Notes: a model not told the origin generated them from the letters alone. Shown: positions 9,001-61,367, counted from the stretch's first letter. The stretch is DNA of 64,000 nucleotides from Patescibacteria group bacterium (GCA_028716665.1 JAQUPP010000001.1:555073-619072), one strand, 5' to 3'. Numbers and translations are program-made.

Positions 9001-11928
9001 AATGTTGAAGGCGTGATAACTAATTCCGGCGAATGGGAGGCCAAGAGTATTGGTAAAAGTTGGATAATGAAAGCAATTGACGGCAGCACAAGAACAGCTT
9101 GGTTTAAATGTAAAGATATTTATGGCAATCAATCCGATACCGGCGGTTCGGCGACCATTAATTACGATACAGGTTTGCCCGGAGTAGTTGATAATGTCAG
9201 TATTGCCGATGCGTCAAATGAATATGTAGAACGTTATGCGTTGACTATTATGTGGGACGCTCTTAGTACTGAAGACAATCCTGATTTTTCAGCTTACAGT
9301 ATTGAGAGATCAACTGATGGTGTAACTTATTCACCGGCAGCCAGTATAAGTGATATCACCACTTCTGTTTATACCAATATCGGTCTTTCCAAAGATATTA
9401 CTTATTTTTATCGCATTAAATCAAAAGACACGGCTGATAATTATTCTTTACCTTCAAGTGTGGTTTCTTATCAACCGGCTTCGGAAGACGATATTCCCCC
9501 GGCTTTAACCGGCGGCTCTCCGGTTGCTACTTCGCACGAAGATTATGCCTTATTCACTTGGGCGACTGATGAACCTTCTGATTCTCACGTGGAATATGGA
9601 ATTATTTCCGGGACTTACACTTCCATGCAAGGTAATGACACTCAAACTGTTTCTCATTCAGTTCAGGTTTATGGATTAAATCCTTTAACCACATATTATT
9701 ATCGTATCAGATCCAAAGATGCCTCTGGTAATCCTTTGGTTTCTCCGGAATACTCTTTTATTTATTGGCCCCCTGAACTTGACGACATTCCATCTATTTC
9801 CGGAGAACAAGCTCAATCTCCGTCGGCTGTTGGCACTGAGGTAACTATTACTTGGATTACTGACAAATATACCACCAGTCAAGTTTACTATGGTTCGACT
9901 CAAACCGGAACTTGTGGAGAACTTAGCAGCTATACCACGGAAGATACAACTTTAAATAAATCGCATACCGTTTTATTAAGAAGTCTTCCTTATGACACTA
10001 CTTATTACTATTGCACACGTTCCAAAGATACTTACGATCATATCACTTGGGGAAGCATGAGAAATTTCACTACTGAAGCAGAACCAAGTCCGGATGACAC
10101 AACCGCTCCGGTTATTTCTGAAATCAATTCGTATCCCACAGAAACGCTTTGCACGATAATTTGGACCACTGATGATTCCGCCAATTCTCAAATTGAATAT
10201 GGTTCAACCACTGCTTACGGAACTTCAAGCACTCTTGATTCAACTTTAACCGCCAAACACGTGGTTCGCTTGACTGATTTAACCACTGAACAAGTTTATC
10301 ATTATCGAATCAAATCAAAAAATGCGGCCGATCTTGAAACCGTTAGCCAGGACTATACTTTTACTCCTCAATATGTTTCTCAGGAAGTAAGAGTGATTAA
10401 TGCAGGAGGAGGAGGCAGCGCAGCTGTCCCGACCAAAGACACAACTTCTCCGGTTATCAGCAACATATCTGCGTCTTCAATCAGCGACAACAGCGCCAAA
10501 ATTTCTTGGACTACTGATGAAAATGCCACCAGTCTAATTAGCTATGGTTTAACCACTGATTACAGTAATTATGTCTTCAGTGATATGACTAGCTTAATCA
10601 CTTCGCATCAAATCACTCTTTCCAATTTGACCAAGTCCACCGTCTATCATTATCAAGTCCTATCTCAAGACGCTTCGGGTAATCTTGCTCAAAGCGCTGA
10701 CGCCGTCTTCACCACTTTAAGTGTATCGGGTGGAACCACCCCGACTCAGGAAACCACGCCTGAAACTCCGGTTACTCCGGAAACACCGGTTGAACCAACA
10801 ACACCAATTGAACCGACTCCAACTCCTGTTACCGCCATAGATCAATCTTTTGTCACGGCCATGGAAGCAGCCAGACAAATCTCCACTCAAGTTACCGGAC
10901 CGGTTCTTGAAACAACTTTCCAGAATTTCTTGAACACTTTGAAAGACATCACGCCGGGTTTGTCGCTTGAAGCAGCTCCTGAGATTGAGATCTCAGCCAC
11001 TGACGCGATTATCAAATGGAAAACAAACAAACGTTCCAACTCTCAAATCGCTTTTGCCAAAGTTGCCGATTACGACGACACCAAATCAGAACCATATTCG
11101 CAAATTGTTGGCCAATCAAATGAGAAAGAATTAAATCACAATGTTAAAATTATCAACCTGACTCCTTCCACCGATTACTATTTCCAAATTCGCTCCAAGA
11201 GCATTATCGGTTCAGAAGCAAAATCAAAAAGATATACTTTCACCACGGCTTCGCAATTGCCCGAAGTGACTAATTTCTCCATCAAAAATATTTCTGAGAG
11301 AGCAGCCACTTTTGTTTGGCAGACAAATATCCCGACTGATTCGCAAGTGAAATTCATCCCTTATCGCAACAATGAACTGGCGGTGGGCGAAGCCCAGACT
11401 GTCAGCAAATCTGATTTCAATGTGGCTCACGAAATCGCAGTCAAGAATCTTGAACCGGGCACGACTTTCAATGTTTCGCTTGAAGGAAAAGATTTGCAGG
11501 GCAACAACTATTCTTTCCTGATTCCAAACTTCACCACCACCAAAGACAAAAATGCGCCAATCATTTCGCAAATCAGAACCTCAATCGCTTTGTCATCAAG
11601 AGGCGATGAAGTCCAGACCATTATTACTTGGAATACCAATGAACCTTCAACCTCGCAGGTTGAATACCAGGTTGGATTTGGTGAGGATGCTCCGACTGTC
11701 CAAATGACCGAAGATATCAGTTTGAGACAAGAACATTTAATGGTTATTACTTCGTTTAAACCCGGATCCATTTACAGATTCAGAGTCATTTCTGAGGATT
11801 CTTCGGGCAACAAAACTCAATCAACAACCAATACTTTACTGACTCCTCAAAAGAGATTGACCGTAACCGAATTGATTTTCCAAAACTTCCAACAGACCTT
11901 CGGATGGATGAAAGGATTGGGTAAATAA
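1..11928 (+). CDS. Giant surface protein, 5'-truncated by the window edge (frame open from nt 1; track start 184 is an internal Met). About 25 LVIVD-type beta-propeller repeats, two DUF2341-like modules, a LamG/ConA-like lectin domain, a second LVIVD block, a long Fn3-like array, a Pro/Thr linker, and a conserved C-terminal three-Fn3 module plus tail.
   Basis: Frame 1 has no stop from nt 1. Repeated 'GNYAYVAD..GL.I.D.S.P..P' units match LVIVD repeats. 'DIRFYDNDG..ELDY..ETY....ATFWVEV..L....NP.IYMYYGN' appears twice (DUF2341-like). 'LDFDGADNVSVP...ISVEFWIYPKG...WTHVVATYD' is LamG-like. Many 'YYYRI(R/K)SKD..GN' Fn3/PAP-N-like units. The C-terminal 600 aa are near-identical to ORF2 and ORF3. Confidence 0.8.
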   Translation, partial: AGQVGLSKPEETITENFSSTTKRDAAQTTADWNSGTNELTLKKTITPRIVGTYDTPATAYDVAISGNYAYVVDYNQGLEIFDISTPSTPILKSKLTSVMDAYGITISGNYAYIAGNDWGFWIVDISNPLSPTLVKRYYPWGSNTLKVDVLGNYAYIAHGGEGLRIVNITDRSNPSETGFYDTTGSCYDVKVRQVGGNIYAYVADGAPGLLIFDVTNPASPVLLDTLDTENARDVYVSGDYAYVSDGNYFRILDVSTPSDIKEKSIIDTLDGTEGIDVSGNRAYLASHSYGVQIIDITDKSNPSKISMVDTPQYLTDANNSAYQVAVSGNYAYVANGNNIGLVVIDVSEPFSPNFSESLKTLSDSQGVYVSGDYAYMAEGYQGLHIYDITGDTPSYVGSYDTPGYARDVYVSGDYAYVTDSDWGLQIINISIPSAPSFVSWYNTPGTAYQVVVDGDYAYVIDATTLQIINISNKALLTLTGSYNCPDNAYGLDKVGNYVYVTGYGQNPSFSAVNVTNPASPTLAGSYNGSEYGNQAYDVKVKTVGASTYAFLASYNYGFQVLNITNLGSISRATYLYSTETSYGIRLFLSGNYAYLANERGGLEVIDISNPAAINRQQKIDVPDYVMDVMIDGDNAYMAARSSGLQKVNITRPASLSSTPTSDYGREVFVSGNYAYMAEETNSSLSIFDITDKTAPVFLSNKDLAGTYCNDVKVVGSYAYVSCYDAGLYIVDVSDPANPVYKGVYNTPSYAYEVIVDGSYAYVADYTTLQIINISDPTNPTLTGSYNCSDYAYYLDKVGNYVYITSYNQNPNLTIVNVTNPASPTLAGSLYQNDRQLNGIKVNGSYAYVAYSAASGGVAVYNISNPASISKTGQWGLNDSTTNSSFITYSNNKVYLSAGTGGLHVVDVTTAATPAYVGTFDTTNTVRGSYISGNYLYFSDYIGGLKILDISQTMGAPTLEGSLDTPGNSYRLDKLGDYAYVADYSGDLRIINVSNPASPSATGNLSLTGNSYDVKAKVQGSKTYAYVGTDQLGLQIVDATTPASPTLANSVNIGSNIYGVELNNNYAYLASDTGGLNIVAIGGTNGSDSAQESSDNETFPYKKSIALTGAGDASTNYQIMVKVGYSSAATGVNLTCSGNCQADFDDIRFYDNDGVTELDYFKETYTLGDKATFWVEVKDSLSSGQNPTIYMYYGDNDASTTSSGANTFPLFFDDFTGTTIDTGKWSETDTSSKISQSDKIVVTGGAGWGNTSLYSVSDFARADNLELLFDYKPTGGTSVMFGWKDSTSGKSYTDLIYSFYDTSDTNRIYEDNGDRGQFSGGWIANNTYKVRMPLKTGGGAKYMRSTDGGRTWVLNYDSSYSTEATEKIGFINSDAAYEIDNAFIRKVSSADPKINNYIYNAGGSDLTEQASGNGDFPYKKTIGLLGQGDAGTNYQIEIKVGYAPTTNGVNLSCSSHCQTDFDDIRFYDNDGTTELDYWRETYTASDQATFWVEVKDSLSDGENPNIYMYYGNETADTASNSANTFTETNPDTFDVGSWHMEEGSGSTTDDASANSNTATINGATWTSSGKFGNALDFDGADNVSVPSSSELSPTDAISVEFWIYPKGRYSDWGNIIYKSGSYGLNWEGWNARMRWTIGASCGGSWGGGGLPTLAYNTWTHVVATYDKNLPSNQMNMYFNGVVGETLTCTNAIPVNSNALVMKIDNNIPVDQSERLDEVKVYNRALSADEVSSLYNYNLIRTRKSSSVDPEVANTISPFTPEIISSFDTPGNAWDVKVKTIGAVTYAFVADYSGGGLRIINVTDPANPVEVSSIGSGNTFRSVDVVGNYAYLALEGSDLYIYDISNIAVPFFVGNYSIVNYEAYDIQVISNYAYLANRQGGLYIIDVSNPYRPGMVSQYNTYPDYTWGLIVEGDYAYLATYTTGLKIIDLGDLSPPVQVSTTMAVGISNAQDVAVSGNYAYVAEYNWGLIVIDVSSTSTPSIVGSAQSFGNPYAITVDGDYAYVASQNRGLEIFDISDPTAPILTKSYIWTGSGSVYDIEVIGNYAYLANYTYGIKIIDITDKYNPLLVGSAGVSGSAAGIDIQGDYAYVTDYGAYMHIFNISNKTSPQWISSYNITGGQGLVWRIAVSGDYAYVADKGYNLYIFNIADPYNIALVGTLDSDISGQSDRGALNLFVSGTRVYIADYTRGLQVIDISDPTAPYILSCIDRVKDNQLWAGAYFGGVISVSISGHYAYLIDTLRGLWIVDLDQLSETPAVNTASGGYVTDIEVQGDYTYVLANSSAGSGSTAFSVLSIFDTSTNPATLKSRIKIYDALGITVSGNYVYVANLGKGLLIIDVSNKSAPQGVGVYDSTGSTYDVAVSGNYAYLADYSGGFKVIDISTKTSPVYKTVINTGVATQRVQVKGNYAYVTDATTGFHIINITTPTSPSETGSTLPVNAHYDFFVEGSYVYVGDNTSGLTIYNISNPAAPYLVGTYDTMGNVYDVKVSGGYAYISDYGGGLLILDVSIPSSPAYVGNYISKSSTYRLFVKRNKIYLATQYHGVEVINLKTQNSNVVSTGLDTLAAPILKGSLTATDTEPTGTSITYYLSVDNGTTWEAITPDGSEYTFTAFGSDLKWKAVMTTDDSTITPTISQVVIWASTGMSNTGYLISSVFEQKSPNFAWETIEWTDNEIQTTRVKVRTDETADMATATTWTNCPYAVDEGDLGDLSSVSSTQPYIQYRLEFATSDIDETPILSDIDITSAVYATATYDYSQTNPVGWYHIDWVNSGGTDTAVKVRTKEADTQEGLDDDTWSDWVTTSGQDIREMASPTKWIRLEVQIETRKNNVSPILESLSLFYAVNVTPTVSEISAQENENGVVQISYTVLDEDSDSISTTFQYWDGDSWEDCDTTTGEGSHDVTPGLQTELTGTWNVKTDYNNQYLANSRIKIIIDDSSPYLNLGEDQSTTFVIDTKKPTTPTLSINSGAAITNSLFVTLTPACVDDSDLKVQFSNDDLTYGTVTNVEGVITNSGEWEAKSIGKSWIMKAIDGSTRTAWFKCKDIYGNQSDTGGSATINYDTGLPGVVDNVSIADASNEYVERYALTIMWDALSTEDNPDFSAYSIERSTDGVTYSPAASISDITTSVYTNIGLSKDITYFYRIKSKDTADNYSLPSSVVSYQPASEDDIPPALTGGSPVATSHEDYALFTWATDEPSDSHVEYGIISGTYTSMQGNDTQTVSHSVQVYGLNPLTTYYYRIRSKDASGNPLVSPEYSFIYWPPELDDIPSISGEQAQSPSAVGTEVTITWITDKYTTSQVYYGSTQTGTCGELSSYTTEDTTLNKSHTVLLRSLPYDTTYYYCTRSKDTYDHITWGSMRNFTTEAEPSPDDTTAPVISEINSYPTETLCTIIWTTDDSANSQIEYGSTTAYGTSSTLDSTLTAKHVVRLTDLTTEQVYHYRIKSKNAADLETVSQDYTFTPQYVSQEVRVINAGGGGSAAVPTKDTTSPVISNISASSISDNSAKISWTTDENATSLISYGLTTDYSNYVFSDMTSLITSHQITLSNLTKSTVYHYQVLSQDASGNLAQSADAVFTTLSVSGGTTPTQETTPETPVTPETPVEPTTPIEPTPTPVTAIDQSFVTAMEAARQISTQVTGPVLETTFQNFLNTLKDITPGLSLEAAPEIEISATDAIIKWKTNKRSNSQIAFAKVADYDDTKSEPYSQIVGQSNEKELNHNVKIINLTPSTDYYFQIRSKSIIGSEAKSKRYTFTTASQLPEVTNFSIKNISERAATFVWQTNIPTDSQVKFIPYRNNELAVGEAQTVSKSDFNVAHEIAVKNLEPGTTFNVSLEGKDLQGNNYSFLIPNFTTTKDKNAPIISQIRTSIALSSRGDEVQTIITWNTNEPSTSQVEYQVGFGEDAPTVQMTEDISLRQEHLMVITSFKPGSIYRFRVISEDSSGNKTQSTTNTLLTPQKRLTVTELIFQNFQQTFGWMKGLGK
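10075..11928 (+). repeat. Conserved 3' gene module, copy 1 of 3, inverted relative to copies at 53355..55200 and 61368..63210. Encodes Fn3-like domains plus the C-terminal tail.
   Basis: Protein stretches such as 'FTTASQLPEVTNFSIKNISERAATFVWQTNIPTDSQVK' are 100% identical between ORF1 and ORF2. Spot nucleotide comparison of 11236-11350 against the reverse complement of about 53940-54060 gives roughly 90% identity. Boundaries are approximate. Confidence 0.7.
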
Positions 11929-11948
11929 ATCTTAAAATAAAAAATATA

Positions 11949-12356
11949 ATGTATTTATTAATTAATAATTTGGAAGAAAGCAGAAATTATTTGGCTTTAA
12001 TAATGGACAAGTCCGCGAAAAAATATTTTTTTTTAACTTTGAAAAACAAAAGAGGACAAGACAATAATATTTTGAAAGGATTGGACAATCTTTTATCAAA
12101 AGTAAATAAAAGATTAAAAGATATTAAGGGTATTATTGTTGTTAATGGTCCGGGCTCATTTGTCGGCATTAGGGTGGCCTTGTCAGTGGCGAATACTTTG
12201 GCTTGGTTGTTAAAAGTTCCCGTGGTCGGCCTTAAGAATGGAGAGAAATTTAATTTGATTAAAATCGGAATTAAAAAATTAAACAAGAAAACAAAAACAG
12301 TCAGGCCGTTTTATGGGAAACTGCCAAATATAAGCCAACCTAAAGAGTTTTGTTGA
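11949..12356 (+). CDS. tsaB: tRNA t6A biosynthesis protein TsaB (YeaZ)-like, short form of 135 aa
   Basis: 'IIVVNGPGSFVGIRVALSVANTLAWLLKVPVVGL' matches the TsaB/YeaZ N-terminal signature (GPGSFTGLR). It lacks the C-terminal half of canonical TsaB. Confidence 0.5.
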   Translation: MYLLINNLEESRNYLALIMDKSAKKYFFLTLKNKRGQDNNILKGLDNLLSKVNKRLKDIKGIIVVNGPGSFVGIRVALSVANTLAWLLKVPVVGLKNGEKFNLIKIGIKKLNKKTKTVRPFYGKLPNISQPKEFC

Positions 12357-18491: not shown

Positions 18492-20339
18492 ATGATTGAT
18501 AAATTAAAAAAATTATCCAAATTAATCCGCTATTATATTTTATTTTCCACCACTGAAGCCGGTTCCGGTCATCCAACTTCTTCGCTTTCGGCGACTGATT
18601 TGATGGCTGTTTTATTTTTTGGCGGATTTTTTCGTGTAAATCTTCAAGATCCTAAATTTGTCAATAATGACAGATTTATTCTTTCAAAAGGCCACGCTGT
18701 GCCGGCGCTTTACGCTGTTTATGCTGCGGCCGGAATTTTGACCGAAACTGATCTTAAAAAATTGCGTAAATTCGACAGCCCTTTAGAAGGACATCCAGTG
18801 CCGCGTTTTCCATACAGTGAAGTCGCCACCGGTTCTTTGGGTCAAGGTTTGTCAGTCGGTGTTGGTATGGCTATTAATGCTAAATATTTGGATAAATTGC
18901 CTTATCGCACTTATGTCCTTTTAGGTGACAGCGAAATGGCCGAGGGTTCGGTTTGGGAAGCCATTGAATTGGCCAGTTATTATAAACTTGATAATTTAAT
19001 CGGTATTATTGACGTGAATCGCTTGGGACAAAGAGGTGAGACAATGCTCGGTCATAAAGTTAACGAATATGCCAAGCGAATTTCGGCTTTTGGTTGGCAG
19101 ACAATTGTTATTGACGGACATAATTTAAAAGAAATTGAAAAAACTTTTAAAAAAGCCAATCAAATTAAAAATAAACCGATAATGATAATTGCCAAAACCA
19201 TCAAGGGTAAAGGAGTTTCTTTTTTGGAAAATAAAAACGGTTGGCACGGGAAAGCGCTTTCAAAAGAAGAGTTTAATAAAGCTGTGCAAGAATTAGGAGA
19301 AATTGATAAAAAAATAAAGGGAGAAATTCAAGAACCAGAGAAAGGGCAAAAATCAACCCCGACGCCAATGGGTCGGGGCTCCGACCGAAGCGTCGGAGAA
19401 TTTAAAATTATAGAGTATCCAATAAATACTCCGGTCGCAACACGCAAGGCTTTTGGCAATGCCATAACCCGTTTGGCTGAAAAATATCCGGAAATAGTTG
19501 TTTTGGACGGCGAAGTTGGAAATTCAACTTACGCGGAAATTTTTGAAAAAAAATTTCCAAAAAGATTTTTTCAGATGTTTATTGCCGAACAAAATATGGT
19601 TGGTACGGCGCTGGGATTGGACAAGCGCGGAAAAATTCCTTTTGTCCCGACTTTTGGCGCTTTTTTAATCAGAGCTTTTGATCAAATCAGAATGTCGCAA
19701 TATTCAGAAGCTAATCTTAAATTTATCGGTTCGCACGCCGGCGTTTCCATTGGTGAAGACGGACCGTCGCAGATGGCGCTTGAAGATATTGCCATGTTTA
19801 GAACGATTTTAAACAGCGTAGTTTTATATCCGTCTGACGCGATTAGTACGGAAAAATTGGTTGAAGAAATGATAAAATTCAAAGGAATAGCTTATCTTCG
19901 CACCACGCGTTCGGCCACACCGATAATTTATAAACCAAATGAAAATTTTCCCATTGGCGGAAGCAAGGTTTTGAAGAAAAGCGAAAAAGATGCGGTGACC
20001 GTAGTCGCGGCCGGTATTACTCTTTTTGAAGCGTTAAAAGCTTATGAAATATTAAAAAAAGAGGGGATTAATATCAGAATAATTGACCTTTACAGTATCA
20101 AACCGATTGACGCAGCCACTTTGCAACAAGCGGCTAAAGAAACAAAAGCCATTATTACGGTTGAAGATCATTTTGCCGAAGGCGGAATGGGCGAAGCCGT
20201 GCGCAGTATTGGTATAAATATTAATTCATTAGCGGTGAGAAAAATGCCACGCAGCGGTAGGCCGGAAGAATTATTGGATTTTGAAGAAATTTCCGCCAAG
20301 GCGATTATTAAAAAAATCAGAGAAATTATGAAAGTTTAA
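18492..20339 (+). CDS. tkt: Transketolase (single fused polypeptide, 615 aa)
   Basis: 'TEAGSGHPTSSLSATDLMAV' (TPP-binding GHPG region), 'GDSEMAEGSVWEA', and C-terminal pyrimidine-binding and TKC domains. Confidence 0.85.
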   Translation: MIDKLKKLSKLIRYYILFSTTEAGSGHPTSSLSATDLMAVLFFGGFFRVNLQDPKFVNNDRFILSKGHAVPALYAVYAAAGILTETDLKKLRKFDSPLEGHPVPRFPYSEVATGSLGQGLSVGVGMAINAKYLDKLPYRTYVLLGDSEMAEGSVWEAIELASYYKLDNLIGIIDVNRLGQRGETMLGHKVNEYAKRISAFGWQTIVIDGHNLKEIEKTFKKANQIKNKPIMIIAKTIKGKGVSFLENKNGWHGKALSKEEFNKAVQELGEIDKKIKGEIQEPEKGQKSTPTPMGRGSDRSVGEFKIIEYPINTPVATRKAFGNAITRLAEKYPEIVVLDGEVGNSTYAEIFEKKFPKRFFQMFIAEQNMVGTALGLDKRGKIPFVPTFGAFLIRAFDQIRMSQYSEANLKFIGSHAGVSIGEDGPSQMALEDIAMFRTILNSVVLYPSDAISTEKLVEEMIKFKGIAYLRTTRSATPIIYKPNENFPIGGSKVLKKSEKDAVTVVAAGITLFEALKAYEILKKEGINIRIIDLYSIKPIDAATLQQAAKETKAIITVEDHFAEGGMGEAVRSIGININSLAVRKMPRSGRPEELLDFEEISAKAIIKKIREIMKV

Positions 20340-20415: not shown

Positions 20416-20901
20416 TTAACTTACTCGCCATTCAATTTCTTTGTCATCTCCGGCAAATTCGCGCCATTCTCCGTCTTCGGCTACGACAAACCATTTTTGT
20501 TTGGTTTGGCTCCAGACCATGGGATTGTCAAGAAAAAAAGGTTTTTTAACAATTTCTTTCGGCTGCAACTTATCAAGTTCCAGCCATTTTTTAAACACGG
20601 TTTCAATAGCATAATCAAGGCGGCGCGACTTAGCCCATTCGGATACTTTATTAATGGCTGTTTTGGCTTGTTCCACGGAACCGGCTAAATCCAATAATTG
20701 TTTTGCTGGACGGGTAAATCTTGAATAAATTATTTTTTTCTTTTTCGCGTCGTCTTTAATTTGTTCAAGCGTTAGACCCTTGCTGTAAAAATAATGATTA
20801 ACTATTTCTTGAATAGCCGTTCCTTTGTCTTCTTTAGGAGCCGCCGGAGGGGTGACTTTGATTTTTTTATTTTTAGGCAGTTTTAGTTTTTGTTCAGTCA
20901 T
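20416..20901 (-). CDS. Hypothetical protein (161 aa, Lys-rich)
   Basis: Clean ORF with no recognisable motifs. Its start codon abuts the repeat element at 20902. Confidence 0.45.
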   Translation of the reverse strand: MTEQKLKLPKNKKIKVTPPAAPKEDKGTAIQEIVNHYFYSKGLTLEQIKDDAKKKKIIYSRFTRPAKQLLDLAGSVEQAKTAINKVSEWAKSRRLDYAIETVFKKWLELDKLQPKEIVKKPFFLDNPMVWSQTKQKWFVVAEDGEWREFAGDDKEIEWRVS

Positions 20902-21041
20902 ACCAGGTAGTAGAAATTTGACTAATTAATATTAAATATTTTTTTAAACTTAGGCTAAGCGCCGAAATAGTAAGAATTTGATTTATTAATACCTATTTTT
21001 ACAGCCCACCTTAGTGGGCGGTCAAATTTTCACTACCTGGC
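20902..21041. repeat. MITE-like intergenic element copy A, about 140 bp, with 21 bp terminal inverted repeats ACCAGGTAGTAGAAATTTGAC / GTCAAATTTTCACTACCTGGC
   Basis: The inverted repeats are read directly. The same repeats bound a second element at 26213..26356. There is an internal hairpin 'gcccac ctta gtgggc'. Confidence 0.65.
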
Positions 21042-21145
21042 ATAATAAAAGTATTTTATCACTTTTGTAAAATTAGGCAAGGTGAAAAAGTTATCCACAG
21101 ATTAAGACTTGTTAATTTTATTTGGGTATGTTACTATGTGTATAG

Positions 21146-21182
21146 ATAACACTAAGTTAATGTATAAATAACATTAAGTTAA
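21146..21182 (+). promoter_or_regulatory. 15 bp direct repeat (ATAACACTAAGTTAA / ATAACATTAAGTTAA, 7 bp spacer) ending 5 bp upstream of the nrtR-like start. Candidate operator.
   Basis: Read directly from the sequence. Its position immediately 5' of a predicted transcription-factor gene heading an operon supports the call. Confidence 0.4.
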
Positions 21183-21186
21183 AAAT

Positions 21187-21888
21187 ATGAAAAACAAAAA
21201 TAAAATTGCCCGTTGGCAAGAAAAACCGGAGAAACCGCAAATAGCGGTGGATACAGTTATTTTTAATATCATTAATAATGATTTAAAAATTCTGTTAATC
21301 AAACGTGGATCGAAAACATTTAAAAATATGTGGGCCATACCCGGCGGCCGAGTTAATAAAAATGAACCGTTAGAGGAAGCGGCAAAAAGAGAGTTAGAAG
21401 AAGAAACCGGAGTGAAAGATGTTTATTTGGAACAGCTTTATACCTTCGGCGACCCTAAAAGAGATCCGAGAGGCAGGGTCATTTCTGTGGCTTATTTCGC
21501 TTTAATCGGCGAAGAACCGCGATTGAGGGCTGACACGGACGCTATAGACACAGACTGGTTTAGTGTTAAGAAATTGCCCCCATTGGCCTTTGACCATAAA
21601 AAAATTGTTAATTATGCTTTAAAACGTTTATCTTGGAAATTGGAATACACCAATATAGGCCGCAATCTTTTACCGAAAGTTTTTACTCTTTCGGAGTTAA
21701 GAGAAGTCTATGAAATTATTTTAGGCAAGAAAATTGATAAAAGAAATTTTCAGAAAAAAATATTATCCTTAAATCTCATTAAACCGGTGCATCAGTTAAA
21801 GAAAAATGTTTCTTACCGGCCGCCCAAGCTTTGGAAATTCATAACCGGTCAAAATGTGATCTTAGAAAAACGGGGATTGAATTTTTAA
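21187..21888 (+). CDS. nrtR: Nudix-domain transcriptional regulator of NAD metabolism (NrtR-like): N-terminal Nudix fold plus C-terminal winged-helix
   Basis: Nudix box 'GGRVNKNEPLEEAAKRELEEETGV'. About 100-aa C-terminal extension. The gene heads a pnuC-nadR operon. Confidence 0.55.
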   Translation: MKNKNKIARWQEKPEKPQIAVDTVIFNIINNDLKILLIKRGSKTFKNMWAIPGGRVNKNEPLEEAAKRELEEETGVKDVYLEQLYTFGDPKRDPRGRVISVAYFALIGEEPRLRADTDAIDTDWFSVKKLPPLAFDHKKIVNYALKRLSWKLEYTNIGRNLLPKVFTLSELREVYEIILGKKIDKRNFQKKILSLNLIKPVHQLKKNVSYRPPKLWKFITGQNVILEKRGLNF

Positions 21889-21910
21889 ATAAATTATTTA
21901 ATATTATAAT

Positions 21911-22585
21911 ATGCATAATTTTTTAAACATTAACAATATATTCTTCACATTTATCGGTTATCAGATGAGTTATTTGGAATTTTTCGGCACTATTTTTAAT
22001 TTATGGTGCGTTTATTTGGCGGCTAAAAATAAAATTTTAACTTGGCCTATCGGTATCGCGGGAATCATACTTTATCTTTTCCTTTTTTATCAAATTCAAC
22101 TGTATTCTGATTTTTTTGAACAAATCTACTTTTTAATTACAAGTTTTTACGGATGGTTTTTATGGCGAAAAATCATGTTAAAAAATAAGTCAGGCGAATC
22201 CAAACAACTGCAAATCAGCTATAATGTTCTTAAAAATAATATCATTGTTATAAGTTTAATAATTTTAGGAACAGCGTTAACTGGTTATTTCATGCAACAC
22301 ATACATCTTTATTTTCCCAAGATTTTCCCCGTGCAAGCATCATTTCCATTTTTAGATGCACTTACAACCGTAATGAGTTTTATTGCTCAATTTTTAATGG
22401 CAAAAAGAAAAATAGAATGTTGGTATCTTTGGATATTGGTGGATATCATCGGCATTGGCCTTTATTATATCAAAGGCGTTAAATTTATTTCTTTGGAATA
22501 TTTAATATTTCTTTGCCTGGCAATAAAAGGATTGGTTGATTGGCAAAAACAATATCATAATCAAATAATCAAGGGAAAAATATGA
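21911..22585 (+). CDS. pnuC: Nicotinamide riboside transporter PnuC-like membrane protein
   Basis: 224 aa with seven or eight TM segments and Trp-rich helices. Located between the nrtR-like gene and nadR. Confidence 0.5.
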   Translation: MHNFLNINNIFFTFIGYQMSYLEFFGTIFNLWCVYLAAKNKILTWPIGIAGIILYLFLFYQIQLYSDFFEQIYFLITSFYGWFLWRKIMLKNKSGESKQLQISYNVLKNNIIVISLIILGTALTGYFMQHIHLYFPKIFPVQASFPFLDALTTVMSFIAQFLMAKRKIECWYLWILVDIIGIGLYYIKGVKFISLEYLIFLCLAIKGLVDWQKQYHNQIIKGKI

Positions 22586-23613
22586 AAAATAATATCGCCG
22601 GTAAAAAAATAGGGAGCGGCCTGGTTTTCGGGAAATTCATGCCTCTGCACGAAGGTCATGTTTATTTATTGAATTTTGCCCTTAAATCATGCAATAAATT
22701 AACCATACTTGTCTGTTCGTTAAAAGACGAACCTATTCCGGGAGAGATAAGATTTTTATGGGTAAAACAATTATTTCCCAACGCAAACGTTATTCATCAT
22801 TATGCCGATATTCCGCAAGAGCCAAAAGAGGATCCTGATTTTTGGAATATTTGGAAAGAAAGTATCAAGAAACATTGCCCGGGAGAGGAATTCGACGCCT
22901 TGTTCGGTTCAGAAGATTATGGCTGGAAAATGGCCGAGACAATGGGAATTGAATATATTCCGGTAAATCGTCAAAGAGATTTGGTGCCGATTTCGGGCAC
23001 AACCATAAGAAAAAATCCGATAAAATATTGGAGATTTCTGCCTGAAATAACAAGACCTTATTTTGTAAAAAAAGTATGCATTGTTGGTCCGGAATCTACG
23101 GGAAAAACAACGCTTGTTAAAAAATTGGCAAAAAAATATAAAACTGTTTTTGTGGATGAATATGCCCGTCAATTATTGGATGAATATGTCAAGCATGCCG
23201 GTTATAAAGAAGGGGAGGTTCGTTATAAAGATATTTTCAATATTGCTCGCGGACAAATAGCAACGGAAGATTCTCAAGTTAAAAGAGCGAATAAAATACT
23301 TTTTTGCGACACGGATTTGAATACAACTGTTTTTTGGTCAAATTTTTATTTTAAAAAATGTCCTCAATGGATCAAGAAAGAAGCTGAAAATAGAATTTAT
23401 GACCTTTATTTATTGCTCGATATTGATGTTCCATGGGTAAAGGATCCTCAAAGGCCGATACCAAAAATAAACGAACGCAAGAAATACTTGAAATGGTGGC
23501 AAGAAGAATTAAAAAAACAAAAAAGACCGTACATTATAATTAAAGGAAACTGGGAAGAGAGACTTAAATTGGCCAATCAATCCATAAATAAATTATTTGT
23601 TAATTCTAAATAA
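22582..23613 (+). CDS. nadR: Bifunctional NMN adenylyltransferase / ribosylnicotinamide kinase (NadR-type, without HTH domain)
   Basis: 'GKFMPLHEGHVYLL' ((H/T)xGH nucleotidyltransferase motif) and 'GPESTGKTTLVKKL' (P-loop of the RNK domain). Confidence 0.8.
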   Translation: MKNNIAGKKIGSGLVFGKFMPLHEGHVYLLNFALKSCNKLTILVCSLKDEPIPGEIRFLWVKQLFPNANVIHHYADIPQEPKEDPDFWNIWKESIKKHCPGEEFDALFGSEDYGWKMAETMGIEYIPVNRQRDLVPISGTTIRKNPIKYWRFLPEITRPYFVKKVCIVGPESTGKTTLVKKLAKKYKTVFVDEYARQLLDEYVKHAGYKEGEVRYKDIFNIARGQIATEDSQVKRANKILFCDTDLNTTVFWSNFYFKKCPQWIKKEAENRIYDLYLLLDIDVPWVKDPQRPIPKINERKKYLKWWQEELKKQKRPYIIIKGNWEERLKLANQSINKLFVNSK

Positions 23614-23627
23614 TTTAAAAAATAAAT

Positions 23628-24491
23628 ATGCGAATTCAAACTTACAGCGTTTTAATAGGAAATCGTAAATGCAATGCTCGTTGTCCTTATTGTGTTTCCA
23701 AAATGACGCCGGCGCAAGGAGTTGATTCTAAAAAATCAAAAATAAATTGGAGAAATTTCAATATTGGCTGTCAATTTGCTCAAAATAACGAGGTTTCCAC
23801 CATTTTGCTTACCGGCAAAGGAGAACCGCTTTTATTTCCAAAAGAAATTACAGCTTTTTTGAAACACCTTAAACCTTACAAATTTCCTTTTATAGAGCTT
23901 CAAACTAACGGCATCCTCATTTTCCAAAAAAGAAATTTATACAAAAAATATCTGAAAGAATGGTATCAGCTTGGTTTAACAACTATTGCTATTTCCATAG
24001 TTCATTATAAAGATGAAAAAAATAAAATAATTTATCAGCCAGAAGGTTCTTATATGAAATTGGTTGATTTAATAAAAATTATTCATTCAGCAGGACTTTC
24101 AGTAAGATTTTCCTGTACGATGTTAAAAAATTTTATAGACAGCCCAACAGAAGTTAAAAAATTAGTTAATTTCGCCAAAGAAAACAAAGTGGAACAAATA
24201 TCCACAAGGTCGCTGGAAAAACCGATTAAAAGTGAAAATAAGGAAATTTCTCAATGGGTTGCCAAACATCAGATAAATGAAACCCAACTTAGAAATTATC
24301 TTAAGAATAATGCCGTTGAAGTGATGAAGCTGGTTCACGGGGCTACTGTTTATGATTTAGACGGTCAAAATATTTGTTTAACCAATGCTCTAACTTTAGA
24401 TCCATCTTCAGAGGAACTTAGACAATTAATATTTTTTCCGGACGGTCATTTAAGATATGACTGGCAATATCCGGGGGCTAACTTAATTTAA
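23628..24491 (+). CDS. Radical SAM enzyme of unknown specificity
   Basis: 'CNARCPYC' is a CX3CX2C cluster motif near the N-terminus. 287 aa with no SPASM extension. Confidence 0.65.
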   Translation: MRIQTYSVLIGNRKCNARCPYCVSKMTPAQGVDSKKSKINWRNFNIGCQFAQNNEVSTILLTGKGEPLLFPKEITAFLKHLKPYKFPFIELQTNGILIFQKRNLYKKYLKEWYQLGLTTIAISIVHYKDEKNKIIYQPEGSYMKLVDLIKIIHSAGLSVRFSCTMLKNFIDSPTEVKKLVNFAKENKVEQISTRSLEKPIKSENKEISQWVAKHQINETQLRNYLKNNAVEVMKLVHGATVYDLDGQNICLTNALTLDPSSEELRQLIFFPDGHLRYDWQYPGANLI

Positions 24492-24496
24492 TAAAT

Positions 24497-25450
24497 ATGA
24501 AAAAATTTAACGCCATTACCACTGTTTACAGTTATTATTTTCCCGAAATCAGAAAAATAATAACTGATTTAACCAAAAATTATCCTCATCAGATATTTCT
24601 TAAATCCATAGATCCCGGTTTGGACGATTTTCATTTTCCGATTATTGATCAATTTTTAAAATTTCAATCCGAGGCAATACCGCGTCTTAAAGATTTTGCT
24701 TTTAAATATCCGATCGGCGGCGCGGAAGAAGGAATACGCGAGATTTTAACCATGCTACAGAGTAAGGGGATTAAACAAATATATGTTTTAAAAGGGGACT
24801 ATGAAGGTTATCAGGCCGTAGCCGAGACGCGCAACATTAAAACGATTGAGGTTGATAAAAATACAGATCCGACAAAAATTAGAAAGGGTTATTGGTTTAT
24901 TTCCAATCCTTCGGCCTGCGACGGCAATATTTTATCCGATGAATTTATAAATAATATCTGTCAGGCCGGTCATAAAATTATTTATGATTTAACTTATCTC
25001 GGCATGACCGATTTGCACCATTTTGATATCAGTCATCCGAACATTATCGCTGTTCTTGTGTCTTTTAGTAAACCGTACGGATTATTTTACTATCGTTTGG
25101 GATTTGCTTTCAGTCGAATATCCATTCCGTCATTATATGGAAACAAGTGGTTTAAAAATATTTTATCGCTGTTGATTATACGGAGAATAATGGTAAAATT
25201 CAATTGTCGATATTTTTCTAAAAAATATAAACCCGTTCAGAAAAAAATCGTTAATGAAATTAATAAGCAGTTTGAATTGAATTTAAAACCAAGTGATGCC
25301 TTGCTTTTGGCTTATTTAAATAAAAAAGATGCAAAAAAACTTAATTCGCAGCAATTAAAATTAATTAAAAAATTTAAACGAGGCGATAATTATAGATTTT
25401 GCCTCACTCCTTATTACCAAGAGTATGAAAAAAATATGCGTTTTCATTAA
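24497..25450 (+). CDS. Hypothetical protein with weak PLP fold-type-I (aminotransferase-like) motif resemblance
   Basis: 'FISNPSACDGNIL' resembles NP.NPTG, and 'VSFSKPYGLFYYRLGFAFS' resembles SFSK..G..G.R.G with a PLP lysine. It is short (317 aa). Weak call. Confidence 0.3.
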   Translation: MKKFNAITTVYSYYFPEIRKIITDLTKNYPHQIFLKSIDPGLDDFHFPIIDQFLKFQSEAIPRLKDFAFKYPIGGAEEGIREILTMLQSKGIKQIYVLKGDYEGYQAVAETRNIKTIEVDKNTDPTKIRKGYWFISNPSACDGNILSDEFINNICQAGHKIIYDLTYLGMTDLHHFDISHPNIIAVLVSFSKPYGLFYYRLGFAFSRISIPSLYGNKWFKNILSLLIIRRIMVKFNCRYFSKKYKPVQKKIVNEINKQFELNLKPSDALLLAYLNKKDAKKLNSQQLKLIKKFKRGDNYRFCLTPYYQEYEKNMRFH

Positions 25451-26213
25451 AACAACCAAGCCCGGCGTGCGTCAAACGGCAAAAGAAATAGAAAAATATT
25501 TCAAAGAACGGAATTATCAGGTTTTTAATAAAATAAATTCATCAGTTTTAAAAAAGGGATTAGACTGGATTATGGTTCTTGGCGGAGACGGATCAATACT
25601 TCATACGGCTAATAAAGTGGCGATTCAGAAAGTTCCCTTAGTAGGCGTTAATTTTGGCTGCAAGGGTTATCTCTGCCGCATTTCAAAAGAACAATTATTA
25701 AAAAAAATGGAAGAGCTTCATCAAGGAAATTTTTCCGTTGATTCTTATACGCGAATTAAAGCGCGGATCACCAGAAAAAATAAAATTATCAAAGAAATAG
25801 ACGCGCTTAACGATATAGTGGTCGGTGGAATCAATCGGGTGGTTTGGTTAAAACTTAAAATTATTCATGGTAATCAAAGGAAATTAGCCAATGTCGTTGG
25901 CGATGGTATAATTTTTTCCACTCAAATAGGTTCAACTGCTTATAATCTTTATGCCGGCGGGCCGGTGCTTTTCAATGATTCTTTCAGCGTGGTTGCCTGC
26001 AACGCGTTCTTTGAATCTGATTATTTTTCGCCCAATACAAGAGCATTTGTCGCGCCAACCAGCGCTTCATTTGAAGTGATAACCTTGCGGAGCGGTCAGC
26101 ATTTGCCTTATGTTGTGGCCGACGGACAGAGAGACTATCGTCTTAATGAAGGCGATAAAGTGGTTATTTCAAAATCATTAATGACCACAAAATTAATAAA
26201 ATTCAAGGATTGA
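25425..26213 (+). CDS. nadK: NAD+ kinase
   Basis: 'WIMVLGGDGSILH' (GGDG) and 'DGIIFSTQIGSTAYNLYAGGPVL' (NAD kinase signature). Confidence 0.85.
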   Translation: MKKICVFIKTTKPGVRQTAKEIEKYFKERNYQVFNKINSSVLKKGLDWIMVLGGDGSILHTANKVAIQKVPLVGVNFGCKGYLCRISKEQLLKKMEELHQGNFSVDSYTRIKARITRKNKIIKEIDALNDIVVGGINRVVWLKLKIIHGNQRKLANVVGDGIIFSTQIGSTAYNLYAGGPVLFNDSFSVVACNAFFESDYFSPNTRAFVAPTSASFEVITLRSGQHLPYVVADGQRDYRLNEGDKVVISKSLMTTKLIKFKD

Positions 26214-26356
26214 CCAGGTAGTAGAATTTTGACTTATTTTTTTTAAGGGCGGTAAGAGGTAATTAATAAATTTTTAAGCTAATAAATTGATAAGTATATA
26301 TAAATAAAGAAATTAAATAAAAAATTAAAGGCCCTGTCAAAATTTCACTACCTGGT
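26213..26356. repeat. MITE-like intergenic element copy B: ACCAGGTAGTAGAATTTTGAC ... GTCAAAATTTCACTACCTGGT
   Basis: Same terminal inverted repeats as 20902..21041. It starts at the last base of the nadK stop codon. The AT-rich interior differs from copy A. Confidence 0.65.
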
Positions 26357-26413
26357 TGACAAATAGCAATTTTTTTGATATTATAATAATAATTTTGCAG
26401 CTCTTTACAATAT

Positions 26414-26427
26414 CCGCTAAATAGCGG
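26414..26427 (+). promoter_or_regulatory. Perfect palindrome CCGCTAAATAGCGG immediately 5' of the pncB ribosome-binding site (AAAGGAGG). Candidate operator.
   Basis: Read directly from the sequence. It lies 4 bp before a strong SD and 15 bp before the ATG. Confidence 0.35.
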
Positions 26428-26441
26428 AAAAGGAGGAAAAG

Positions 26442-27656
26442 ATGGAACATATTATTAATTCATTGTTGGACCTGGATTATTACAAATTGACCATGGCCCA
26501 AGTATCTTGGAAATATTATCCTGAAGTTCCGGTACAGTATAGTTTTATAAATCGCACCGCTCGTGTGAATTTATCCGATTATATTTCCCTTGAAGTTTTA
26601 AAGTCGGAGTTTGACCATGTTAAAACGCTCAAATATCTTCCTGAAGAAATTGATTATCTGCGCGGTTTGAAAATTTTCGAAGAAGGTTTTTTAAATTTCT
26701 TAAACGGCGTAAGGTTGGACGGTATTTCTTTTCGCACTCAACCGAAATTTGAAATTGAAGTGGAAGGTAATTGGAGTGAACGAATTTTTTGGGAAACCAT
26801 AAAATTATGCATCGTTACAGAGTTGTATAATCGGGTTTTAGTAAAACGATCCGGCATGTCCATGGAAGAAGTTTGGAGAGAAGGAGAAAGGCGATTGGAT
26901 GAGAAAATTAGAATTATTCAAAAACATCCGGAAATTAAATTTATAGATTTCGGCACTCGGCGCAGATTCAGCAGAGATTGGCATGATTATGCTGCAAGGA
27001 AATTAAAAAATGAATTATCGCCGGAACAGTTTTTGGGAGTATCAAATGTTTACCTTGCCAAAAAATACGGTTTAGCCTCAAAAGGCACTTATGCTCATGA
27101 AAAAGACATGATTCTTTACGGAGTTTTCTATGACAGTAAAGATCCTGTCCGCGAGTCGCATAACAGGGTTATGGAAATATGGTGGGAAACATACGGTAAG
27201 GGATTATCAATTGCTTTGTCTGATACTTATGGCAGCGATTTCTTTCTTGAAAATTTTACATTAGAACAGGCTCAAAATTGGAATGGATTACGTCAAGATT
27301 CAGGTGATCCTTTTAGATGGGGCGAGAAAGTATTTGATTTTTATCTTAAAAAAACCATTAACCCCACCACTAAAACAGTTATTTTCAGTGACGGATTGGA
27401 CATTACAATGATGTTGAAATTATCAGGATATTTTCGGAATTGCTTCAATGTTTTGTTCGGTTGGGGTACGAATCTGACAAATGATTGCGGTTTTGAGGCG
27501 CTTTCCTTGGTTTCAAAGCCAACGTATTCTTGCGGTCACCCGGTAATTAAATTGAGTGATAATATCGCCAAAGCTACCGGAGATCTCAAAGAAATCGAAA
27601 GAGTTAAACGTATTCTCAGTTATACCAACGACTTTAACGAAACCTGTGTGTATTAA
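26442..27656 (+). CDS. pncB: Nicotinate phosphoribosyltransferase
   Basis: The N-terminal 'LLDLDYYKLTMAQV' is characteristic of NAPRTase. 404 aa. Confidence 0.75.
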   Translation: MEHIINSLLDLDYYKLTMAQVSWKYYPEVPVQYSFINRTARVNLSDYISLEVLKSEFDHVKTLKYLPEEIDYLRGLKIFEEGFLNFLNGVRLDGISFRTQPKFEIEVEGNWSERIFWETIKLCIVTELYNRVLVKRSGMSMEEVWREGERRLDEKIRIIQKHPEIKFIDFGTRRRFSRDWHDYAARKLKNELSPEQFLGVSNVYLAKKYGLASKGTYAHEKDMILYGVFYDSKDPVRESHNRVMEIWWETYGKGLSIALSDTYGSDFFLENFTLEQAQNWNGLRQDSGDPFRWGEKVFDFYLKKTINPTTKTVIFSDGLDITMMLKLSGYFRNCFNVLFGWGTNLTNDCGFEALSLVSKPTYSCGHPVIKLSDNIAKATGDLKEIERVKRILSYTNDFNETCVY

Positions 27657-27707
27657 TAATTTTTTCCGTCTTTAAAAAATAAAAAATCCAAAAAAAGAAA
27701 AAGGGAG

Positions 27708-28319
27708 GTGATTAAAATGAAAGGAAAGATTATCAGGATAAATTTGATAGTGGATGGGATTATTGGTTTTCTTGAAGAAGGTCCGCTTTTCAGTCCGAGA
27801 ACCAGAATAATTATTCCGCACATTGATGAGTATTTAAAAAAGGAATGGACCGAAGAGAGAAGACATAATCAAGAAACCATTTTTGTCGGAGATGCGCATG
27901 GTAAGAATGATCTGGAAAACAAAATATTCGGTGTTCATTGTCAAAAGGGAAGCAAGGAAGCTCAAATTATTCAAGAATTGCGTTGGTGCGCGGAAAATAG
28001 TTATAGCTCGGTTTATACTAAAAAAAGTCACAGCGCGCTTTTTGAAACAGGTTTATTGGATCATCTACAGGCGTATCATCCGTTTAACGCTCCGGTTCCG
28101 GAGAATATGGAAATAGTAATTATGGGAGCTTGGACTGACGTTTGTGTTTTGCACACAATAATTGACCTTGTGAGATACGGTTATAATAAAATTATTGTAT
28201 CAAAGGATTGTGTGGAAACCGGCGATTTACCTTGGCATCCGGGCGATGAAGTGCAAAAATGGGCGCTGGTTTATATAGAAAAAGTATTGGGCGCGAAAGT
28301 AGTAGACCATTTGGATTAA
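27708..28319 (+). CDS. pncA: Isochorismatase-family hydrolase, likely nicotinamidase
   Basis: 'MGAWTDVCVLHT' is the catalytic Cys context of the isochorismatase/nicotinamidase family. The gene lies downstream of pncB. Confidence 0.55.
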   Translation: MIKMKGKIIRINLIVDGIIGFLEEGPLFSPRTRIIIPHIDEYLKKEWTEERRHNQETIFVGDAHGKNDLENKIFGVHCQKGSKEAQIIQELRWCAENSYSSVYTKKSHSALFETGLLDHLQAYHPFNAPVPENMEIVIMGAWTDVCVLHTIIDLVRYGYNKIIVSKDCVETGDLPWHPGDEVQKWALVYIEKVLGAKVVDHLD

Positions 28320-28321
28320 AT

Positions 28322-28354
28322 AAAAAAGCCCTCTCAATAATCGAGAGGGCTTTT
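28322..28354. terminator. Bidirectional terminator between convergent pncA and lemA
   Basis: 'aaaaagccctctc aataatc gagagggcttttt'. Confidence 0.75.
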
Positions 28355-28373
28355 TAAATTATCCGAATATAAT

Positions 28374-28931: not shown

Positions 28932-28975
28932 ATTTTTATAAATTAAAATTATTAATTAAATTATTATAACACGTT

Positions 28976-52442: not shown

Positions 52443-52691
52443 TTAATTATCTTTAATTAATGCTATTTTTTTATTTCTATCCCAACTTTTTATTTCGGCT
52501 TCACGTTTTCTTGCCTCTTTCAAATTTTCGTAAGTTTCCGAATATTTTAAGATTACCGGACGTCGCAATTTTGTATAATGAGCGCCGCACTTGGAATTAT
52601 TATGCTGTTTTAAGCGTTTTTCAAGATTATTGGTTGAACCAGAATATAAGGATTTATCAGCGCATTCAAGGATGTAAACATAGTATTTCAT
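52443..52691 (-). CDS. GIY-YIG nuclease superfamily small protein (UPF0213/YhbQ-like)
   Basis: 'YYVYILECADKSLYSGSTNNLEKRLKQHN' ... 'ENLKEARKREAEIKSW'. Confidence 0.8.
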   Translation of the reverse strand: MKYYVYILECADKSLYSGSTNNLEKRLKQHNNSKCGAHYTKLRRPVILKYSETYENLKEARKREAEIKSWDRNKKIALIKDN

Positions 52692-53323: not shown

Positions 53324-53354
53324 AAATTATAAATTAAAATTTTATTAAATTAAT

Positions 53355-61295: not shown

Positions 61296-61367
61296 TTAAT
61301 ACCCTTGTATTTAATATTATATAGAAAAAACATTAATAAATCAATATAATAACCATTATTTTAAAGT

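Follow-up and report, generated by a model that had tools for sequence, protein, structure and literature searches.

Introduction

Ssn proteins are single-domain GIY-YIG nucleases of about 94 amino acids, and on both sides of their genes stands an oriented hairpin repeat, further copies of which are dispersed genome-wide (Chenal et al. 2025, PMC11893778). The enzymes are specific for single-stranded DNA (ssDNA), depend on the hairpin and cleave strand-specifically next to the repeat, and the authors remarked that the NTS-ssnA-NTS arrangement has an architecture like that of an insertion sequence (IS) (PMC11893778). No members from the candidate phyla radiation (CPR), target duplication, start-codon association or translated repeat are described in that paper (PMC11893778). 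We analyzed a stretch of 64,000 nucleotides from a Patescibacteria group bacterium (GCA_028716665.1 JAQUPP010000001.1:555073-619072), called the window throughout, in which two inverted-repeat elements of about 140 bp, copy A and copy B, lie in a region of NAD-salvage genes. With high probability both are non-autonomous members, without an open reading frame (ORF), of a mobile GIY-YIG family that has 20-bp terminal repeats and makes a 4-bp target duplication.

Of the systems described so far Ssn comes closest, and the family resembles it in having a small single-domain GIY-YIG gene (here with a core of 87-90 amino acids), an oriented repeat on both sides of it and scattered copies of the repeat, and a conserved mismatch that marks the strand fits recognition of a single-stranded hairpin, as in Ssn. 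It differs in that each Ssn repeat forms its own hairpin of 20-50 nucleotides, whereas here two 20-bp arms pair across the whole element.

Other known elements are alike in part. The Correia/NEMIS elements of Neisseria are similar in size (60-160 bp), inverted repeats, short duplications, long and short classes, intergenic position near genes and transcribed hairpins. They have characteristic 26-bp ends, a TA duplication and an IS transposase as partner, whereas the present family has other arm sequences, a 4-bp duplication, a GIY-YIG cassette, a bias for start codons and two invariant mismatches. IS200/IS605 and REP/RAYT elements are likewise very small, with hairpin ends, strand polarity and a preferred short target, and by analogy a single-strand 'peel and paste' logic as in IS200/IS605 would be plausible for this family. 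However, IS200/IS605 elements use HUH tyrosine (Y1) transposases, insert beside a fixed tetra- or pentanucleotide and leave their target unduplicated, whereas here the 4-bp duplication is proven by an empty site and no HUH gene lies between the arms. The free-standing GIY-YIG homing genes of T-even phages are also small selfish genes that sit between host genes and use neighbouring expression signals, but they have no inverted repeats, target duplication or ORF-less derivatives and spread only between homologous loci. We found no published description of the element in open-access papers and bioRxiv, and there is a substantial chance that the family differs from the described MITEs (miniature inverted-repeat transposable elements) and Ssn-like repeat-nuclease pairs as a new class of transposable element.

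Structure of the two window copies

The window was searched for the repeat arm with CCAGGTAGTAGAAWTTTGAC as the query, up to 3 mismatches being allowed, and shuffled sequences served as the control. This search identified four matches where 0.03 were expected from the shuffles, which excludes chance. The matches and the sequences that flank them are as follows.

20903-21040, plus strand: element copy A (138 bp), which runs from its AG arm to its GA arm and has no ORF of its own
20903-20922, plus strand: 'AG' arm of copy A, CCAGGTAGTAGAAATTTGAC, from the arm search
21021-21040, minus strand: 'GA' arm of copy A, CCAGGTAGTGAAAATTTGAC, from the arm search
20899-20902: left CATA duplication of copy A, in which CAT (20899-20901) is the start codon of a 161-aa gene on the minus strand
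21041-21044: right CATA duplication of copy A, which reads TATG on the minus strand and holds an orphan ATG
26214-26355, plus strand: element copy B (142 bp), which likewise runs from AG arm to GA arm
26214-26233, plus strand: 'AG' arm of copy B, CCAGGTAGTAGAATTTTGAC, from the arm search
26336-26355, minus strand: 'GA' arm of copy B, CCAGGTAGTGAAATTTTGAC, from the arm search
26210-26213: left TTGA duplication of copy B, in which TGA (26211-26213) is the nadK stop codon
26356-26359: right TTGA duplication of copy B, the first four bases of the -35 box TTGACA upstream of pncB

A first-pass annotation of the window had reported both copies, with 21-bp inverted repeats and different interiors, and had placed them against the start codon of the ORF at 20416-20901 and against the nadK stop. 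The copies, the divergence of their interiors and both abutments are as it described, but the repeat is 20 bp long, and the outer base belongs to the 4-bp direct repeat that flanks the element.

The arms of the window copies read CCAGGTAGT[AG/GA]AAWTTTGAC. The two arms of one element are identical in neither copy, one having ..GT-AG-AAA.. and the other ..GT-GA-AAA... Between copies A and B the arms differ at a single A/T position (AAATTTGAC versus AATTTTGAC), and since this difference is present in both arms it is a compensated change. A single arm is not self-complementary, and the stem forms by pairing of the two arms. Long hairpins were obtained on both strands of both copies (-32 to -49 kcal/mol, z -4.7 to -8.1), with folding energies for the two strands of -47.6 and -49.1 kcal/mol in copy A and of -36.1 and -31.9 kcal/mol in copy B. 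The orphan ATG at copy A opens a 10-codon ORF (MPGSENLTAH*) that runs into the element and is the sole reading frame in the window copies. A lone 12-mer with 1 mismatch at 32613 has no partner arm and was rejected as a fifth, degenerate copy.

Distribution and conservation of the family

The species-representative genomes of GTDB were scanned with CCAGGTAGTRRAAWWTTGAC, and 72 loci were found, nearly all of them in metagenome-assembled genomes (MAGs) of the CPR with the labels Parcubacteria, Portnoybacteria, Saccharibacteria, Gottesmanbacteria, Doudnabacteria, Berkelbacteria or 'Patescibacteria group'. Several contigs of one MAG may be represented, with seven for PEYL01 (five with paired elements), six for LBYG01 (five paired) and five for CAYIFS01 (four paired). 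The solitary matches in non-CPR MAGs have no partner arm and resemble chance matches. A scan of metagenomes added at least 120 loci, each counted as a contig and again almost all from CPR bacteria. The arms are thus not confined to the two window sites, a count that the first-pass annotation had proposed as a check. By pairing arms no more than 450 bp apart we defined 69 elements from the GTDB loci, and 107 further unique elements were present among the metagenome matches listed. Carriage by phages was considered and rejected, as IMG/VR gave no more than a pair of solitary matches, both of which depart from the arm consensus at two bases. The family consists of very small mobile elements that are common in the ultra-small CPR/Patescibacteria bacteria.

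Across the family the terminal inverted repeat is 20 bp long and reads CCAGGTAGT[AG/GA]AAWTTYGAC, and in both window copies and about 175 others the arms within an element are complementary at 18 of the 20 positions. One AG arm is combined with one GA arm in 71 of 72 elements and in 103 of the 107 metagenome elements listed, which gives the stem its fixed mismatch, A.C plus G.T/U, at positions 10-11. Compensated double changes at stem positions 13, 14, 17 and 20 were found in 20 elements and one-sided changes there in 8 (n=72); the compensated pairs were T-A in place of A-T at position 14 (6 elements), T-A at position 13 (1), C-G (10) or G-C (1) at position 17, and T-A at position 20 (2). The outer 12-13 nucleotides are the most constant part of the arms, and some elements keep these with inner halves that are different and still complementary.

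The elements fall into three size classes of about 60-90 bp, about 110-160 bp and about 300-360 bp. Their interiors are highly variable across genomes and near-identical among some copies of one genome, and many of the ORF-less copies have a separate GC hairpin beside the GA arm. Solo arms exist as well, and in all four that were read out the survivor is the gene-proximal arm.

Mobility and target duplication

With the element boundaries taken as CCAGG...CCTGG, exact 4-bp direct repeats were found to flank 41 of the 69 GTDB elements and 69 of the 107 metagenome elements listed, the chance of such a match being 1/256 for each, and many of the elements without an exact repeat differ at one base. 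The target-site duplications that the first-pass annotation had suggested looking for are thus present, as CATA and TTGA in the window copies, and they were confirmed by a site within the window itself.

28970-28973, minus strand: empty target site with a single CGTG, upstream of LemA, within ...cttaaaaCGTGttataataattt...

Contig L098 encodes a 161-aa protein 96% identical to that of the window, and the DNA of the two is about 94% identical around LemA. Its site upstream of LemA is filled and reads ...cttaaaaCGTG, then a 139-bp element (L098 803-941), then CGTGctataataattt.... The presence of two CGTG in L098 and of one in the window shows that the two sequences differ by an insertion and that the 4-bp repeat is a true duplication. 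An IS608-like model, in which the element brings its own tetranucleotide and makes no duplication, was rejected because the empty site has one CGTG and the filled site two.

Movement is also evident elsewhere in the family. Four elements of MAG CAYIFS01, three of them with near-identical interiors (L007, L009 and L059) and one closely similar (L011), sit on the start codons of four different ORFs. Nested insertions were found in L030 and in L043, where a 71-bp form lies inside the GA arm of a larger element, and tandem arrays in which neighbours share a single CATA were found in L050 and L113 (three copies). A short form of 69-71 bp was seen repeatedly within the GA arms of larger elements, where it had inserted at the same TTTT beside the mismatch (L043 2249-2450 and 7689-7773; L111; L161).

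The position of the repeat is not conserved. L097 has no arm at all, nor has any of L099-L102, whose homologues of the 161-aa gene are more distant. At that gene L098 is likewise free of arms, and it has a copy where the window is empty. The family is mobile, has inverted repeats and makes a 4-bp target duplication. Copies A and B are ordinary passengers of it and are MITEs by the working definition, being small, gene-less, multicopy and mobile, with inverted repeats and a target duplication. The first-pass suggestion of a MITE-like non-autonomous transposon derivative is borne out by the spread of the family, its duplications, the empty site, the non-conserved position and a longer partner element.

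A GIY-YIG nuclease gene between the arms

The first-pass annotation had also suggested looking for a full-length element with the same ends and a transposase gene. A longer element with these ends does exist, but it encodes a small GIY-YIG nuclease and not a recognised transposase. In L049 (GTDB, 310 bp) the ORF of this protein is in frame with an ATG outside the arm, and the arm is translated (ATG CCA GGT AGT GAA AAT TTG AC., M-PGSENLT-). The coding elements, of about 300-360 bp, consist of two repeats and one single-domain GIY-YIG gene with a core of about 87-90 amino acids, and the peptide encoded by the arm is PGSEN(S/L)T (MPGSENST...).

A protein search from the L049 ORF gave 1002 clusters at 90% identity, typically of 97-105 amino acids and all with PF01541. 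Among the precomputed domains this is the main one, and it is overlapped by PF10544 and PF13455, which are related to it. Among the best 120 of the 1002 clusters, 105 start with MPGS(E/R)N.. and 10 more hold the peptide downstream of a longer called start. In an alignment of 40 sequences the residues Y14, Y16, Y26, G28, R36, H40, N41 and E72, as expected of an active GIY-YIG site, are invariant. NCBIfam gave only a sub-threshold match for the arm-bounded nuclease. The closest solved proteins by sequence, all weak, are UPF0213 (1zg2, E 4e-6; 1ywl) and SLX1, a structure-specific nuclease.

The contigs that encode three of the nuclease proteins (L077; L079-L088; L089-L096) have a common plan, namely TATG, arm, nuclease ORF, a stop that abuts or overlaps the far arm, and the TATG of the host gene. 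In coding copies the host ATG lies 20-22 nucleotides past the nuclease stop, and the gene upstream often ends a few bases before the first TATG. We read out 11 coding copies (L049, L077, L079, L080, L089 and six long metagenome elements), and in all of them the frame is shared with the outer ATG and the arms lie directly at both ends of the ORF. Their polarity is GA-ORF-AG in nine and AG-ORF-GA in two. Both forms occur on one contig in L196, where the 73-bp copy that accompanies the full-length one abuts another element.

Between arms up to 450 bp apart, at about 190 loci, no other type of ORF was found, wider pairs not having been sought in the metagenome loci. For arms without a partner, a second look at 20 of the 72 genome loci showed them to be solo arms or to lie at contig ends. 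The ORF-less interiors were considered as decayed nuclease genes, and this was rejected because blastx found nothing in them beyond a nested arm.

Other small GIY-YIG genes were seen beside this family. The only GIY-YIG ORF of the window (52443-52691, minus strand) encodes an 82-aa protein of another subfamily, 39-44% identical to the arm-bounded one; it has no arms, and in the sequence ATGA its start codon overlaps the stop of the gene upstream. Small GIY-YIG paralogues with about 40-49% identity are immediate neighbours of tRNA genes for Cys, Asn, Ser and Asn (L024 5027-5334; L034 4413-4733; L036 415-748 and 7563-7903), and in L024 about 25 nucleotides of the 5' part of the tRNA are repeated on the far side of the ORF, which suggests a mobile subfamily that targets tRNA genes.

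Insertion sites

The tetranucleotide that flanks the mid-size and long elements is overwhelmingly N-ATG, TATG being the commonest and AATG, GATG and CATG occurring as well. In 31 of 33 assessable GTDB cases and in 56 of 58 from the metagenomes, a long ORF that points away from the element begins with this ATG. In the same loci (533 kb) TATG occurs 2514 times inside ORFs, 605 times in non-coding DNA and 188 times at predicted ORF starts, giving an expectation of 23.7% at starts on the supposition that all coding insertions are lethal and all others tolerated. Relative to this background start codons are strongly enriched (binomial 1e-17 for GTDB and 1e-32 for the metagenomes). The AG arm points toward the host gene in 31 cases versus 4 (GTDB) and in 43 versus 13 (metagenome). 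The abutment to ORF ends noted in the first-pass annotation is thus real, and it is better described as a strong association with start codons throughout the family, not a coincidence.

A second group of sites lies inside Shine-Dalgarno (SD) boxes, with GGAGG on one side of the element and GAGG-N5-8-start on the other; here the gene-side copy stays GAGG while the far copy is often mutated, the 20-bp arms being intact. A third group lies on the TTGA of a TTGACA box and includes copy B of the window and its closest relatives L010 and L022. The short forms (60-90 bp) have the targets CACA, CAAG, TACG, TTTT and TTGA and are mostly away from gene starts, as are some mid-size copies including the CGTG insertion of L098, so the start-codon bias is strong but not absolute.

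Three other accounts of the sites were rejected. The CACA and CAAG flanks are not GTG and TTG start codons, as the short-form elements concerned are away from ORF starts. Many upstream regions have a -10 box 7-9 nucleotides before the ATG, but the target is not the transcription start of leaderless genes, as copies are found in SD boxes and at operon-internal start codons. Nor does the element carry an outward extended -10 promoter for the host gene (TGnTAnnnT in 4 of 25 in gene orientation versus 3 of 25 in reverse). In two metagenome loci, L188 and L209, a GroEL-like gene (MAKQLKF..) has an element placed exactly between its TATG and the SD box AAAGGAG; these two have no flanking duplication, and the stem would join SD box and start codon.

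Gene setting of the window copies

The genes and signals around the two copies are listed here.

20416-20901, minus strand: 161-aa ORF whose start codon was hit by copy A; function unassigned, no Pfam match
21042-21071, minus strand: promoter-like site TTTACA-18-TATTAT upstream of the orphan ATG, a consensus match only
26356-26384: promoter-like site TTGACA-17-TGnTATTAT upstream of pncB, the best in the region
20903-28366: block of 7,464 bp with copy A and the whole NAD island including copy B, missing from the close relatives L097 and L098

Copy A lies between the 161-aa ORF and a gene for an NrtR-type regulator with NUDIX and NrtR winged-helix domains. From nrtR the NAD-salvage cluster continues with pnuC, a nadR-like gene of the AAA_28 type, a radical-SAM gene, one that weakly matches class I/II aminotransferases, and nadK, and copy B lies between nadK and pncB. 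The 161-aa protein has 3558 homologues, with about 70-96% identity among the best 120, and is widely and highly conserved in Patescibacteria. When copy A inserted, the TATG (gene strand) with which the gene of this protein begins was duplicated, and the gene keeps an ATG at the foot of the stem; as the nearest promoter-like site lies beyond the element, the gene is probably transcribed through it. The insertion of copy B duplicated TTGA, one copy of which serves nadK as its stop while the other belongs to the -35 box of pncB. Because the target is duplicated, neither insertion destroys a signal, and both the nadK stop and the pncB -35 box are kept.

Four other contigs with an identical NrtR protein (two NCBI Patescibacteria MAGs and two Logan assemblies) have copy A at the same place, and the one that reaches far enough also has copy B. 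An empty site for copy B was sought through close PncB relatives and none was found, the nearest relative being only 55% identical. In L097 and L098 the 161-aa gene comes straight after LemA (TAActaataTATG). By blastn, L097 1-596 aligns with window 28962-28367 and L097 596-3582 with window 20902-17917. The island content missing from these relatives is nrtR, pnuC, the nadR-like, radical-SAM and aminotransferase-like genes, nadK, pncB and one further ORF, and one boundary of the island coincides to the base with the outer end of copy A. Copy A marks a rearrangement point at the edge of a 7.5-kb NAD island.

The arms were considered as the NrtR operator and rejected, as they precede many unrelated genes in many lineages. 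A direct repeat, TAACAYTAAGTTA, occurs twice just upstream of the nrtR start codon (21147-21159 and 21169-21181, 22 bp apart). Each copy holds the dyad TAAC-N5-GTTA, and no exact copy is found elsewhere in the window. This repeat is a candidate NrtR operator, likelier than the arms.

Other repeats of the window

A 57-nucleotide sequence with two GC-rich hairpins (CCCCGACGCCAATGGGTCGGGG and CTCCGACCGAAGCGTCGGAG) occurs at 19348-19404 and, inverted and with 88% identity, at 61038-61094, inside a transketolase ORF and inside a 2646-aa ORF; it may be another small repeat family. Very large ORFs built of coding repeats of about 126-132 nucleotides occupy 1-7500, 8600-12000 and 53350-63700, and both ends of the window have in common diverged paralogous segments of 300-1100 nucleotides, inverted relative to each other. 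These ORFs are consistent with giant repetitive surface-type proteins.

Discussion

The results point to a way in which such an element might move and be expressed. Mid-size and full-length elements usually insert at the N-ATG of a host start codon, and the duplication leaves one ATG before and one behind the element, the front one opening the nuclease ORF in coding copies and the rear one serving the host gene. The two arms would pair in single-stranded or extruded DNA, and the fixed A.C/G.T mismatch would mark the strand. The GIY-YIG nuclease, if it is of the structure- or ssDNA-specific type of UPF0213, SLX1 and Ssn, would recognise the hairpin and cut at its base, and would also cut the target with a 4-nucleotide stagger, after which host repair and ligation would complete the insertion. 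Copies without an ORF would be moved in trans. Less firmly, full-length copies may be translated from the borrowed ATG and the host gene re-initiated 20 nucleotides past the nuclease stop, and ORF-less copies may be tolerated because the hairpin joins upstream signals and the regenerated ATG, or because it is processed.

The nuclease seems to us a slightly better than even candidate for the mobilising enzyme, a link that we infer from sequence. The fuller proposal, that a single-domain GIY-YIG nuclease of about 90 amino acids mobilises a new class of transposable element with ends paired as a mismatched hairpin and a 4-bp duplication, which prefers start codons as its targets, borrows the promoter and ATG of the host gene and returns a regenerated ATG to it, is more tentative, and we hold it at just under an even chance. 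Several observations weigh against these views. GIY-YIG enzymes are hydrolases, and we know of no established GIY-YIG transposase in prokaryotes. No full-length, nuclease-coding copy is present within the 64-kb window, and about 40% of the elements have no perfect 4-bp repeat. The ORF-less interiors have no similarity to the nuclease gene, so these copies are not simple deletion derivatives of the coding ones. Mutated far duplications beside intact arms hint at selection on the arms or at rapid turnover, and part of the start-codon bias could reflect which insertions survive, as harmless or expressed ones, and not the specificity of the enzyme.

Alternatively, the arms could be the ends of a classical insertion sequence, for example of the DDE type, that is encoded elsewhere and moves both the GIY-YIG gene, as a frequent passenger, and the ORF-less copies in trans. 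A true 4-bp duplication is a typical product of staggered DDE cuts, strand transfer is not known for GIY-YIG nucleases, and the ORF-less interiors are unrelated to the nuclease gene. We nevertheless regard this as unlikely, since at about 190 loci arm pairs up to 450 bp apart enclose only non-coding DNA or a GIY-YIG ORF, and since the arm-encoded peptide starts 105 of the best 120 homologues; from a passenger gene one would not expect a reading frame that continues the arm to be maintained across more than 100 diverged clusters.

It is much less probable that the elements are host regulatory RNA or DNA structures (terminators, insulators or translational hairpins) kept at operon boundaries. 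Such a role would suit the very stable hairpins on either strand, arms far better conserved than the interiors and than the decayed duplication copies, the survival of gene-proximal solo arms, and the way in which a duplicated UAUG or CAUG on the mRNA strand can extend the stem over the start codon. Yet the elements stand before genes that are unrelated and differ widely in function, they are flanked by target duplications, nest in one another, form tandem arrays and vary in presence between relatives, and they have no conserved internal promoter on either strand (4 versus 3 of 25), and conserved orthologous positions across deep lineages were not seen. No intrinsic-terminator-like site was called at copy A or B, whose 3' arms are followed by CATAAT.. 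and TTGACA.. with no direct T run, and the whole window gave 0 matches to Rfam families at the gathering threshold. A recruited regulatory or terminator stem, the alternative offered in the first-pass annotation, is thus unsupported as the origin of the repeats, while secondary effects on expression may occur.

Homing-type selfish cassettes, copied in by double-strand-break repair after the GIY-YIG enzyme has cut an allele without the cassette, and with ORF-less copies as relics in situ, have precedents in the free-standing GIY-YIG homing endonucleases established in phages and in the site-specific habit of the paralogous genes beside tRNA genes with duplicated tRNA 5' segments, but are hardly credible here, because homing requires homologous flanks and makes no target duplication, whereas the empty and filled sites show a 4-bp duplication, one interior occurs at different non-homologous genes within one MAG, elements nest in one another and the ORF-less interiors are not decayed nuclease genes.

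If the GIY-YIG nuclease does move the element, it would represent a nuclease-only class of transposon beside the DDE, HUH, serine and tyrosine systems. It would give comparative support to the published idea that repeat-flanked genes of the Ssn type began as mobile elements, and at about 310 bp it would be smaller than any autonomous insertion sequence known to us. The pair of enzyme and hairpin may interest developers of sequence-specific ssDNA nucleases. More than 1000 protein clusters in the databases bear the arm-encoded N-terminus 'MPGSENST', the starts of host genes that adjoin elements are easily misannotated, and the elements mark points of recent rearrangement. The habit of inserting at start codons is an unusual parasitic design, as promoter, ribosome-binding site and start codon need not be supplied by the element itself. 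Such borrowing of expression signals may explain both the small size of these elements and their commonness in the most gene-dense bacterial genomes.

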